Source of the DNA: a virus
Length of the DNA: 64,000 nucleotides
Strand: one strand, 5' to 3'
IMG/VR virus record: IMGVR_UViG_3300025864_000001
Span: 1-64,000 of that record
Shown here: positions 15,537-18,573 of the stretch, one piece after another
How the letters are laid out: every line of letters begins with the position of its first letter
Numbering within the stretch: the stretch's first letter is position 1
Program-made: the position numbers and the translations under genes
The notes under the pieces: model-generated
Told to the model about the DNA's origin: nothing
The model's database searches: none
What the model saw: the letters and a program-made list of their open reading frames with translations, nothing else

Positions 15537-15559
15537 GCTATAAATGGATTAGAGAGGAG

Positions 15560-15641
15560 ATGCCAAACCCTCCTAAGTACTCGACAAAGGAGGGCATGCT
15601 ATGAAAAAAGAAAAGCAGAATTGTGCAATCGGCATTTGCAC
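15560..15641 (-). ncRNA. Candidate small RNA / structured leader with anti-AUGAAAAAAG seed
   Basis: TATCTTTG box at 15646-15653, 5' hairpin GTGCAA/TTGCAC, single-stranded TCTTTTTTCATAGC, 3' hairpin CCCTCCT/AGGAGGG. Confidence 0.5.
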
Positions 15642-15680
15642 CCGCCAAAGATAGTCTATTTTTATTTTCTGCTTTCATTT

Positions 15681-15929
15681 TTAATATTTTGGTGTATATC
15701 CGGTAATTGATAATTCAATGGTTCTGAGTTGAGGCAGGCTACATTTTAAAAACAATATACTATCGGGAGTGTTAATTGCAAATTCCCCAACATTTCTTTC
15801 ATTTGTTACAATAAGAGATATTTCATCCCCATCGGCTTCCATTATTTTTTTAGCAAAAGGAATAACGGGTTCATCTGTTTCAATAAATCCATATTCCAAT
15901 AATTCTTTTGATGTAATTGATTTGTCCAT
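15681..15929 (-). CDS. Hypothetical protein
   Basis: ORF in operon direction with A-rich leader. Confidence 0.6.
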   Translation of the reverse strand: MDKSITSKELLEYGFIETDEPVIPFAKKIMEADGDEISLIVTNERNVGEFAINTPDSILFLKCSLPQLRTIELSITGYTPKY

Positions 15930-15952: not shown

Positions 15953-16249
15953 TTATTCTTTGCTTTCAAATTCGCCGGCTAACATCCGTTTATTCCAATC
16001 ATCTTGGCTTACCTGAACTTCCTTTTCTTTTTTTTCTCTTATCCTTTTTTCTTCGGCAAGAATTTTTGGGTCAATAGGCTTTTCGGGTGGCACTATTCGT
16101 TCTAATTCAGATATGAAGGTGCGATAACAACCTCGCTTAATTGTCAACCGGGATATTTTAGAAACATCATGTGCCTCGTCAATGGTAATTTTCAATTCTT
16201 CATTAACTGTTTTAAGTCTTCTTTTGTAATCTTCTAATAATTGTCTCAT
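15953..16249 (-). CDS. Hypothetical protein
   Basis: ORF in operon direction. Confidence 0.6.
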   Translation of the reverse strand: MRQLLEDYKRRLKTVNEELKITIDEAHDVSKISRLTIKRGCYRTFISELERIVPPEKPIDPKILAEEKRIREKKEKEVQVSQDDWNKRMLAGEFESKE

Positions 16250-16305
16250 GGTTTTTGTTTTTACCTATTTTCTTAATTTAAAAAATAAAAAATCATCTTC
16301 TTTTG

Positions 16306-16365
16306 CTACTTTACTTTTCTCTACTCTCCTATACTCTACTTTACTATACTCTACTCTACTCTACT
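16306..16365. repeat. Pentamer tandem repeat (AGTAG-type on minus strand, about 12 units)
   Basis: ctact/ttact/atact/ctcct units. Confidence 0.9.
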
Positions 16366-16827
16366 ATGTGTATTTTCTCCGTCAGAAATGCCATTTATTC
16401 CGTCAGAAATGCCATTTATTCCGTATTTCTTCCGGCAATTGACGGAAAGTAGTTGACATATTTGATTAAAATTCATACATTTTCTATCTCGACGACGGTA
16501 AACGTCCGTCAATCCTTTAACAAAATTTAATGACCAAATGATTCTATTTTCCCATAATTCGGGATGAATTGCATCAAGGGTTGCGCATGTATTATATATG
16601 GCAATTAATTCCTCATCCGTTACCTTCATTAAGGCCGTGAGATATTCCATGTCTTCCGGTTTTCTACAATCGAAATAATGATTATCTGTTCGTCCTAATA
16701 GTTCAAGGGTTTTAAACCAGACTGTATATCCTTTATGACCATATTTGCTTTCCAAAATGAACATGGTTTTACCAGATTCACATTGGTGTGAAAAAAAATT
16801 CACTACGTTTTTGTCTTTTCGTCCCAT
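16351..16827 (-). CDS. DUF4373 (Lin1244/Lin1753-like) replication initiator-type protein
   Basis: FFSH....K...LESKYG..GY..WF..LE.L N-terminal signature, internal iterons and S(K/R)V repeat tail; start MGRKDK at 16827. Confidence 0.75.
   Translation of the reverse strand: MGRKDKNVVNFFSHQCESGKTMFILESKYGHKGYTVWFKTLELLGRTDNHYFDCRKPEDMEYLTALMKVTDEELIAIYNTCATLDAIHPELWENRIIWSLNFVKGLTDVYRRRDRKCMNFNQICQLLSVNCRKKYGINGISDGINGISDGENTHSRVE
16378..16447. repeat. 21-bp direct repeats plus imperfect palindrome (candidate iterons/origin)
   Basis: TCCGTCAGAAATGCCATTTAT x2, then TCCGT, then TTCCGGCAATTGACGGAA. Confidence 0.7.
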
Positions 16828-16830
16828 TAT

Positions 16831-16985
16831 GCCACGCTTTAAGTAAAAAAAGCCCCCGGACAAAAGAAAACCATAATTAGGAAGCGTGACCGACCCATTA
16901 TGGTATCTGATGCCCGGAGGCAATATTTTAATGAAATAACTTTATTGGTTTTCATACGTCACGCTTTAAATACCCTACAAATATA
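16831..16985 (-). ncRNA. P4 CI / P1 C4-like structured antisense leader RNA upstream of the initiator
   Basis: TATATTTG box; AAAGCGTGAC upstream and AAAGCGTGGC downstream of a long hairpin whose loop carries GTCACGCTT; hairpin followed by T7. Confidence 0.65.
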
Positions 16986-17033
16986 TGTTAATTTTTAATA
17001 TAAAAATAAAAGAAGCAGTCTTTTGGTTAATAA

Positions 17034-17375
17034 TTAACAAATGATTTTATCAATCGTCTGCCCGTCTTGCATGATGTAAATCATAGCGTGTTGGGCAAAC
17101 AAAAATCGACCTTCGTTTTCTTCATCAATAAAATTAATGCGAACGAATTGTGTTTTGTCACCGGCAAGACAGTCACCTACTGGTTCGCCACTTTTAAAAG
17201 ACTCATCGTCTGGCGGAAACATCATAAGCAATTCTATTTCCCTTCCCGGTGCTTTGTATTCCTTAACAAAATCCTGCGTACAGGTATAACCACGCCATTC
17301 ATACTGCAACCATTTCGCAGCGTAAATGCTGGTTTTCTCGTTTCGATCTCCTTGAATAATTTTAATTGTCATCAT
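17034..17375 (-). CDS. Hypothetical protein
   Basis: C-terminal IYIM..GQTIDKI pattern common in phage hypotheticals. Confidence 0.65.
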   Translation of the reverse strand: MMTIKIIQGDRNEKTSIYAAKWLQYEWRGYTCTQDFVKEYKAPGREIELLMMFPPDDESFKSGEPVGDCLAGDKTQFVRINFIDEENEGRFLFAQHAMIYIMQDGQTIDKIIC

Positions 17376-17432
17376 AATTTTTACCTCCTATTTCTAATTT
17401 TTACTTCTAATTCTGACTGCTTCTATTATTTC

Positions 17433-17705
17433 TTAAAGCTTACTTGACCAAAGAACCCATCCATATAACCATAGCATCTCGGCCAATACACAAACCCACA
17501 TTAATATATTTTTGTGTCTGCGAAGCATAGGCAATATAATCGAACTTGGTTTATGGTTACTCATTATAAAGATTATATCCATAGAATCAATGCCTCCTGT
17601 TTTGGATGATATCCATTCTTTATGTTGCTCCAAATCAATCATTGTTAATTGTAATCTATTCCGATTTGGATCATCATCTGGGATAAAGGGAATATTTGTT
17701 TCCAT
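17433..17705 (-). CDS. Hypothetical protein
   Basis: ATG right after the DUF6734 stop; C-terminus uncertain. Confidence 0.4.
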   Translation of the reverse strand: METNIPFIPDDDPNRNRLQLTMIDLEQHKEWISSKTGGIDSMDIIFIMSNHKPSSIILPMLRRHKNILMWVCVLAEMLWLYGWVLWSSKL

Positions 17706-17706
17706 A

Positions 17707-18573
17707 TCAGAGGTTATTTTTCTTACAAAAATCATTTATCCGGTAGAACATCTCGGGGGCATCATCAAGAAGGCGCATCCTCACACGTGCCATATTACCC
17801 CTGTCTGTCTTAGTTGTACCCCAATAATGGGTATATTTATGACGGGCATCTTGTCCGGCTTTTACAGCATCCTTATTGATGACCTTCACCTCTGGTCTTA
17901 ACCCGTGTGCTTTTATCAGCGATGCAGCAAAATACTGCTCATGGAATAGATTCTGGTGTATTACGATATCGCCATACTTCTTGAAAAACAAGTTTTGGTT
18001 CTCCGGTGCAAAGATATACTCCGCACTACATTTTATCCACTCTTTAAAGAACTCCATGTCGTGGCCACCACATATGCCACAGTTATAGGCGAAGTCTGTA
18101 ACTTTATTATCTTTAATTATCTGAGGCTTAACAGGTGCTTTGTCAAAACACGGTCTTAACAAATCATAGTAATGGTATCCCTTTAAGTGCATTGGCTCAT
18201 GCGACTGAAAACACAAACGTGCATTTAATATCCGTGGTGGTAATGGGTCAAAGAGAAACACATCATTATCGAGATGTACAAACGGCACGGTCTGTTCGTT
18301 GTACGCGAGTAACTTACCGTATGCCCAGAAGTATTTGGACACGGATTTCATCTCATTGAGCTTATCGGAATAGCTTGTTATTGGCAATCCGAGAGGTTTT
18401 ATAACATCGAGACCCCATTGAGATGAAATAAACTGCACCTCCTTAAAATGACGGGAGGCGCAGAGTACTGAGAGTGCTGTAGTGAATAGAAAATCACTAT
18501 ACTTCACGAATCCACATCTATTGCCGAAGGATTCATCTGGATTGAAGTATGAGAATACTGCTTTTTTTATCAT
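17707..18573 (-). CDS. DUF6734-like putative glycosyltransferase (GT-A-like)
   Basis: WAYGKL.AY..Q..PFVHLDNDVFL (DxD), NCGICGG, EQY, YTHYWG. Confidence 0.7.
   Translation of the reverse strand: MIKKAVFSYFNPDESFGNRCGFVKYSDFLFTTALSVLCASRHFKEVQFISSQWGLDVIKPLGLPITSYSDKLNEMKSVSKYFWAYGKLLAYNEQTVPFVHLDNDVFLFDPLPPRILNARLCFQSHEPMHLKGYHYYDLLRPCFDKAPVKPQIIKDNKVTDFAYNCGICGGHDMEFFKEWIKCSAEYIFAPENQNLFFKKYGDIVIHQNLFHEQYFAASLIKAHGLRPEVKVINKDAVKAGQDARHKYTHYWGTTKTDRGNMARVRMRLLDDAPEMFYRINDFCKKNNL

Follow-up and report, generated by a model that had tools for sequence, protein, structure and literature searches.

The initiator-like gene in a 64,000-nucleotide stretch of viral DNA (positions 1 to 64,000 of the IMG/VR record IMGVR_UViG_3300025864_000001; here the window, by which we mean the whole stretch) is preceded by a compact leader cassette. 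This cassette represents a real RNA family, a conserved device of the sense strand to which no Rfam model corresponds. It combines a promoter, a short site (site A) beside the start codon of a small upstream open reading frame (uORF, the leader frame), a long hairpin that the uORF crosses, a T-run, and an apical loop complementary to site A, all on one strand. Loop and site A co-vary across the family, and the leader frame is kept open by selection. Such a leader is very probably a switch that sets the output of the gene behind it. On balance, we consider that this switch is probably a self-masking, translation-coupled attenuator that acts in cis before anything else.

Conserved parts of the leader cassette

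A check of the sequence recovered every part of the element on the minus strand, where a preliminary description made from the letters of the window had placed it (Table 1). The two-tier hairpin is formed by an outer stem, GCCTCCGGGCA/TGTCCGGGGGC, and an inner stem, ACCATAAT/ATTATGGT. The last G of the promoter box is 22 nucleotides (nt) 5' of the uORF ATG, and the uORF stop codon, 11 nt 5' of the initiator ATG, shares bases with the beginning of a second loop-complementary site (site C). The duplex of site C with the loop reaches -14.6 kcal/mol. A generic terminator scanner missed the hairpin and its T-run because it accepts loops of 3-8 nt only. Since just 24 nt lie between the hairpin end and the initiator ATG, leaving no room for a promoter, expression of the downstream gene must pass the hairpin and the T-run. 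No other terminator was present between position 17034 and the promoter box.

A chance origin of the element is excluded. The word AAGCGTGRC occurs three times in the 64-kb window, against 0.47 occurrences expected, and all three lie within 136 nt inside the element. An 8-mer search of the complete genome, which has 78,468 base pairs (bp) and direct terminal repeats, returned one extra copy only, antisense to a gene, and no further sense-strand target of the loop. The leader RNA folds at -45.9 kcal/mol (z = -2.6), and none of 200 shuffled sequences folded equally well.

We identified at least 35 copies of the cassette in viral and metagenome contigs, 29-32 of which are unique, depending on the amount of flank used to separate copies. 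They were gathered by exact-word scans for the 5' arm of the hairpin (AAAATAYTGCCTCCGGGC), a gapped scan and a scan anchored in the 3' arm; the first gapped pattern gave mostly chance G+C-rich matches, and these were filtered by blastn. Alignment with MAFFT and RNAalifold yielded six pairs only, with the inner stem misaligned, and was replaced by a hand-given structure and a covariance model. This model (R1) scores the members at 85-134 bits (E-values from 1.5e-13 to 4e-23) and finds exactly one copy in the genome of the window phage, with no second one in the window. Five phage records carry the cassette, the window phage included; four have a single copy and one has two, whose pairings are orthogonal (-15 kcal/mol cognate versus -8 kcal/mol crossed).

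Searches of existing collections gave no match to this family. A cmscan of window positions 16000-18000 against all 4227 families of Rfam 15 at E <= 10 gave no C4-type match, and its best match, mir-268, is spurious (26 bits against a gathering score of 47). Four member loci searched against Rfam at E <= 0.1 gave no match, blastn of the 1.1-kb region gave none among deposited phages, and literature searches found no description of the cassette motif. The exact 5'-arm word matched 27 times in 185,579 species genomes; as none of the 27 is a member, the cassette is unseen in reference-genome prophages.

Co-variation between the loop and its targets, which the preliminary description had proposed as a check, is clear for site A. 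The loop is complementary to site A in every member, across at least 24 different site-A sequences. Duplex energies calculated with RNAduplex average -16.3 kcal/mol for cognate and -8.7 kcal/mol for non-cognate combinations, a difference matched by none of 20,000 permutations. The helices, 7-13 nt long, comprise 275 Watson-Crick pairs, one G-T, one A-C and four other mismatches. Double changes occur in eight of the nine site A-loop pairs when alignment columns are fixed, and 79.6% of the pairing cells are complementary compared with 22-56% in slid controls. With one G-T against 275 Watson-Crick pairs, G-U pairing is unusable as proof that this particular helix forms in RNA.

The hairpin co-varies as well. 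Its length is 67-81 nt and its folding energy averages -37 kcal/mol; in the model-based alignment 88.8% of its pairing cells are complementary (38-56% in slid controls). Both sides are changed in 58 cells, a number that none of 500 shuffles reached. Many of its pairs are G-U, which correspond to A-C on the opposite strand; this and the co-variation indicate that the hairpin works as sense-strand RNA. The first 8 nt after the stem contain 5.6 T on average. A TAnnTTTG box is found 17-24 nt 5' of the ATG on the sense strand of 30 of the 32 members, often accompanied by a TTTG 17-21 nt farther upstream, and no opposite-strand box of this promoter type, the only type examined, occurs in any of the 32. 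From the position of the box, site A should be the extreme 5' end of the transcript, and the transcript of the window is predicted to start a few nucleotides before it.

The leader frame's start codon is conserved 0-3 nt after site A (in one member it is GTG) and precedes the hairpin by 30-36 nt. From this codon to the end of the hairpin the frame is free of stops in all 29 unique members, whereas the other two frames hold 74 and 52 stops and are open in one and four members only. The uORF noted in the preliminary description is thus a selected part of the device. Members belong to three frame classes relative to the hairpin, so that the same bases are read as LKYCLRA, ILPPG or IASGQ, and in class-2 members an altered TTAAAAT word removes a would-be in-frame TAA. 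Because the frame through the hairpin differs between copies, it is translation that is selected and not the peptide. The stop codon sits 2-40 nt past the stem and -15 to +20 nt from the main start, with stop and start overlapping as ATGA or TGATG in nine members.

Table 1 Positions of the cassette parts in the window and of related features in other members
Feature	Position	Strand	Basis or remark
-7 promoter box, Bacteroidota type, TATATTTG	16978-16985	minus	sequence
Site A, AAAGCGTGAC	16958-16967	minus	positions -12 to -3 of the uORF start; complement of the loop
uORF (leader frame), 38 codons	16839-16955	minus	ATG 16955, TAA 16841-16839; spans the whole hairpin
Hairpin, two-tier, 70 nt, -36.8 kcal/mol	16852-16921	minus	folding
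Apical loop (anti-A), GTCACGCTT	16882-16890	minus	exact complement of site A; complement of site C with one G-U
T7 run, intrinsic-terminator-like end	16845-16851	minus	sequence; directly 3' of the hairpin
Site C, AAAGCGTGGC	16831-16840	minus	positions -13 to -4 of the initiator start; 3 nt before ATG 16827
Initiator-like gene, 158 amino acids	16351-16827	minus	Lin1244_N (DUF4373); phrog_2562
Lineage with 3' end GGAGGAAAGCGTGATG	L072:880-910; L158, L204, L215, L208, L216
Block of ~290 nt	L159:540-835	minus
Block of ~290 nt	L166:241-560
Block of ~290 nt	L176:840-1153	minus
Block of ~290 nt	L222:100-400	minus

Probable attenuation in cis and its alternatives

[quoted passage not shown] The 5' arm of the hairpin would begin ~31-36 nt after the ATG, and the hairpin with its U-tail would be the only route to the gene. 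A ribosome that loads on the leader frame before the hairpin is complete would trail the polymerase and keep the 5' arm unpaired, or melt the hairpin, allowing transcription to read through. It would then terminate within ~20 nt of the gene start and could be handed over there by translational coupling. The finished loop would capture site A, in the same molecule first, and close the start of the leader frame; since a free 5' end that pairs with a loop meets no topological hindrance, the full helix of 9-13 bp can form. This capture would shut messages already read as well as terminated leaders, in which the uORF stop codon is missing. The cassette would in this way limit and time the output of the first gene in a DNA-replication/modification module, and in the window and one other lineage the loop may also cover the start of the gene itself via site C.

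Several observations count against such an attenuator. The U-tails are interrupted in many members, and in five (L159, L166, L176/L177, L214 and L222) the ATG frame continues for 98-107 codons. G-U pairs are nearly absent from the site A-loop helix, unlike the hairpin stems of the same RNAs, which are rich in them, and this is unusual for a purely structural helix in cis. The mean pairwise identity of site A and loop is 0.60-0.70, the same as in all other segments. As they vary no more than the rest, their divergence tells nothing on cis versus trans action, and diversifying selection on them was rejected for the same lack of faster change. Conservation of the 5' arm is partly forced because most members came from a pattern that fixes this arm, and only three were contributed by the 3'-arm-anchored scan. 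Finally, a search of sequencing runs found no RNA run containing this phage.

It is possible, although we are doubtful, that the main function is that of an immunity or shut-off RNA acting in trans, of the P4 CI / P1 C4 type. Terminated leaders would accumulate, probably after trimming within the AU-rich linker has left a hairpin RNA of ~75 nt, and their loops would bind site A (and site C) of new transcripts from the same or a superinfecting phage; blocking the leader frame would force termination and yield more repressor RNA. This agrees with the P4-like order of target, antisense hairpin and target on one strand before a replication gene (PMC4825925), with a perfect Watson-Crick complement over 9-13 nt in a loop facing a free 5' end, with the at least 24 specificities, with the orthogonal cassettes of the only two-cassette phage and with the single copies in four of the five cassette-bearing phage records. 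Moreover, the loop must be any antisense determinant, because a counter-transcript promoter of the TAnnTTTG type is missing (0/32). However, site A shares an RNA with the loop in every member, so that an unprocessed leader would mask its own loop, and any processing of the leader is putative. Homology to C4 or CI is absent in Rfam (E <= 10), most members are devoid of site C, and site A and loop diverge no faster than the remaining element. The cassettes of relatives also precede methyltransferase and nuclease genes, and no integrase or lysogeny module was seen adjoining the cassette. A self-reinforcing form of this shut-off or immunity switch, in which trimmed terminated hairpins would block later leader starts that share their 9-13-nt code, is likewise a tentative proposal. 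Attenuation in cis and a switch in trans are not mutually exclusive.

The remaining explanations appear less probable. Pairing of the 5' end with the loop could be a structural pseudoknot that stabilises the RNA, shielding it from 5'-end-dependent RNases, or that aids termination; the hairpin with its T-run can also end transcripts from the upstream genes, as no other terminator lies between position 17034 and the promoter box. The short frame would then be incidental, which is unlikely given that it is open in 29/29 members across three frame classes with changes that remove would-be stops, that the ATG and its spacing to the hairpin are kept, and that it ends at or beside the start of the next gene. 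That the cassette is an element of the DNA, with sites A and C and the loop sequence as places where the initiator or a repressor would bind, as to an operator or to iterons, seems highly improbable. The at least 24 sequence versions belong to cassettes that have no neighbouring gene in common, two differing versions occur within one phage, the half-sites are ~65 bp apart, and the inverted copy always lies in the loop of a co-varying hairpin with many sense-only G-U pairs. These points stand against the arrangement of sites A and C as direct repeats with the loop sequence as their inverted copy, against the almost pure Watson-Crick pairing, which deprives the site A-loop helix of G-U pairs as RNA proof, and against the position of the initiator gene directly behind. 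We also give very little weight to the idea that the frame encodes a small protein with a function of its own, such as a membrane peptide, with the hairpin as a structure internal to its gene: the peptide is not conserved and its frame through the hairpin differs between members, even though every member has an open frame of 35-49 codons, whose C-terminal part is hydrophobic because the 3' arm is U-rich.

Genes behind the cassette and the phage of the window

The protein encoded behind the element in the window matches Pfam Lin1244_N (1.6e-7) and phrog_2562, annotated as replication initiation protein (6.8e-16), and is therefore initiator-like, as the preliminary description had it. Two relatives of this initiator were found in IMG/VR, one without the leader (L001) and one with it (L002; site A AACACGTGAC, loop GTCACGTGTT), and the cassette precedes initiator homologues in L188 and L210 as well. 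A position before a replication gene is thus shared by these three and the window but is not specific, as methyltransferases and nucleases take the same place in relatives. Overall, the genes behind the cassette encode Lin1244_N initiators, DUF6291 and DUF1376 proteins, MT-A70, N6_N4 and Dam methyltransferases, HNH and GIY-YIG nucleases, as well as proteins without a family match. Comparison of L127:1-5409 with L190:2718-8593 showed flanks that are 96-98% identical around an upper cassette with 80.6% identity over 170 nt, followed by an MT-A70 methyltransferase in L127 and an N6_N4 methyltransferase in L190; L127 also has ~420 nt extra just upstream of the cassette. The cassette of this pair is located at a mosaic junction. 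The varied downstream genes and this comparison indicate that the cassette is a portable head of a DNA-replication/modification module that is not tied to one gene.

The preliminary description had assigned the loop targets on both sides. The upstream one, site A, is universal; apart from the window and the L072 group, only L188 shows a site C, a weak one, and most members do not have it. In the L072 group a 12-nt site, GGAAAGCGTGATG, covers the Shine-Dalgarno sequence and the start codon of three unrelated genes. An apparent site C in L127 is due to chance, as the same TTTAGCGTATG follows cassettes with unrelated loops. The cassettes of the L072 lineage end in GGAGGAAAGCGTGATG, which consists of a Shine-Dalgarno box, site C and a start codon, and the genes joined to it encode an unknown protein, a Cys-rich protein and HNH nucleases. 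In this lineage the cassette supplies the ribosome site and the start codon for whatever gene follows. A second complementarity, GAAAACCA/TGGTTTTC, had been described as an alternative fold, but it shows no convincing co-variation and is not a feature of the family. In the window it joins A-rich to U-rich sequence (-10.1 kcal/mol) and ranks ninth of 28 against non-cognate combinations; across the family the cognate mean is -5.6 kcal/mol versus -5.0 kcal/mol for non-cognates, and 822 of 20,000 permutations reach the cognate value.

In L159, L166, L176/L177, L214 and L222, a block of ~290 nt that is conserved at the nucleotide level replaces the gene start after the cassette. It begins with AGGGTGTTCTACATAGCTCTTCCC, ends with AGTCTGCAAGGGTTAAAAGGT and contains indels that are not multiples of three, and the open cassette frame crosses it in different frames in different members. 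A search of the block against Rfam at E <= 0.1 gave no match. The block may be an unknown structured RNA.

The window initiator is short, with 158 amino acids compared with 175-336 in the cassette-bearing homologues of L188, L210 and L002, and the tandem GINGISD GINGISD at its C-terminus is a translation of direct DNA repeats. The homologue in L001, 61% identical and without the cassette, is preceded by a frame of ~58 codons beginning MKRVIERKDLMSKSEYSKQYGINRV (L001:1270-1500). This frame resembles a helix-turn-helix protein and may do the work of the RNA leader by means of a protein. A separate leader is found 1.2 kb downstream in the operon of the window (15540-15700, minus strand), where a short open frame likewise runs through a hairpin before the next gene; positions 15596-15733 match model R1 with 13.8 bits only, which places it in a different family.

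The window phage had been described as a crAss-like phage of Bacteroidota. The TAnnTTTG boxes and the relatives of its TerL support a Bacteroidota host; the crAss-like affiliation is not supported. The TerL relatives, all below 30% identity, are from phages of Flavobacterium, Cellulophaga, Tenacibaculum and Maribacter, those of Flavobacterium and the Cellulophaga phi18:3 type being the nearest. The DNA runs that contain the window stretch are peat and soil metagenomes.

Relation to known leader and antisense systems

In P4 immunity, the leader of the replication operon contains seqA and seqC, with which the CI RNA (seqB) acts (PMC4825925), and the C4 RNA of P1 and P7 has its a and b sites before icd-ant (Rfam RF01695; C4 in PMC2864571). 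The cassette had been likened to both. Its layout does resemble seqA-CI-seqC, but it is not a member of the family, since RF01695 is unmatched at E <= 10 and site C is optional. In common with these systems, the antisense determinant is on the same strand and within the leader of the controlled operon, and the window has an upstream and a downstream target with a replication gene behind them. P1 offers a further likeness, as its target is the start of icd, a small frame upstream to which the following gene is coupled. The cassette differs in that it has no Rfam homology and, in most members, no downstream target, that a translated frame crosses the antisense hairpin itself, and that the hairpin has neither tRNA-like RNase P features nor a CCA end. 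Its hosts are Bacteroidota instead of Proteobacteria, and its processing and action in trans are putative.

Plasmid R1 (tap/CopA) and the IncI-alpha/IncB plasmids (repY-repZ, also repB-repA), the latter with an activating pseudoknot and Inc RNA, provide another comparison (PMC8053102; primary PMC556743, PMC1170848). There too, the initiator lies behind a short leader frame that ends at the initiator start (11 nt away in the window), bases beside this start are complementary to a leader-hairpin loop (site C of the window), and pairing of the leader RNA decides on translation, as we propose for the cassette. The plasmid antisense RNA, however, is a counter-transcript, whereas opposite-strand TAnnTTTG boxes were found in 0/32 cassettes and the loop has the 5' end of its own RNA as partner. 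The cassette family does not conserve a pseudoknot partner next to the gene start, and the cassette leader frame, in contrast to that of the plasmids, crosses a terminator-like hairpin. In the Salmonella prophage Gifsy-1, one promoter gives rise to the short terminated RNA IsrK and to a long read-through message, in which pairing of the leader RNA opens or closes the small frame orf45, itself coupled to the gene that follows (PMC4825925). The logic of a short and a long isoform and the coupled small frame are shared with the cassette. IsrK differs in that its short RNA works in trans as an activator of the long form and has no complement between loop and 5' end, and the sequences are unrelated.

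Two further systems resemble single aspects of the proposed mechanism. In pyrBI attenuation of E. coli (the Turnbough model), the leader frame spans an intrinsic terminator, where termination is prevented by a ribosome close to the polymerase. The cassette likewise has a leader frame of ~40 codons that passes a terminator hairpin and ends before the structural gene, with a G+C-rich hairpin, a U-run and no promoter before the gene (-36.8 kcal/mol, T7 and 24 nt in the window). It differs from pyrBI, which responds to UTP through pausing of the polymerase and in which no antisense loop covers the start of the leader. In IS10, the loop of the long and stable RNA-OUT hairpin pairs with the extreme 5' end of the RNA-IN message and covers its start, a geometry of loop and 5' end that permits a full helix, as in the cassette. 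RNA-OUT comes from the opposite strand and works in trans, whereas the partners in the cassette are on one RNA.

The cassette therefore represents an uncatalogued RNA family in which control of the leader-peptide and antisense type appears in a new combination. For replication genes, these two types of RNA control are long familiar from proteobacterial plasmids and from the phages P1 and P4. What is new is a leader translated through a terminator-like hairpin whose loop would mask the start of the same leader, both on one strand, and this in phages of Bacteroidota, where initiation proceeds largely without Shine-Dalgarno pairing. The co-variation is unusually clear for an element known from metagenomes alone. 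The cassette is also portable, heading initiators, DNA methyltransferases and homing-type nucleases. If the switch in trans is real, a phage would turn off its replication/modification module as templates multiply and exclude co-infecting relatives with the same code, and the family would comprise 24 or more codes, orthogonal to one another and built on a single conserved scaffold, among bacteria whose initiation is mostly free of Shine-Dalgarno pairing. The many orthogonal pairs of loop and target on a single scaffold are potential natural riboregulator parts for Bacteroidota.

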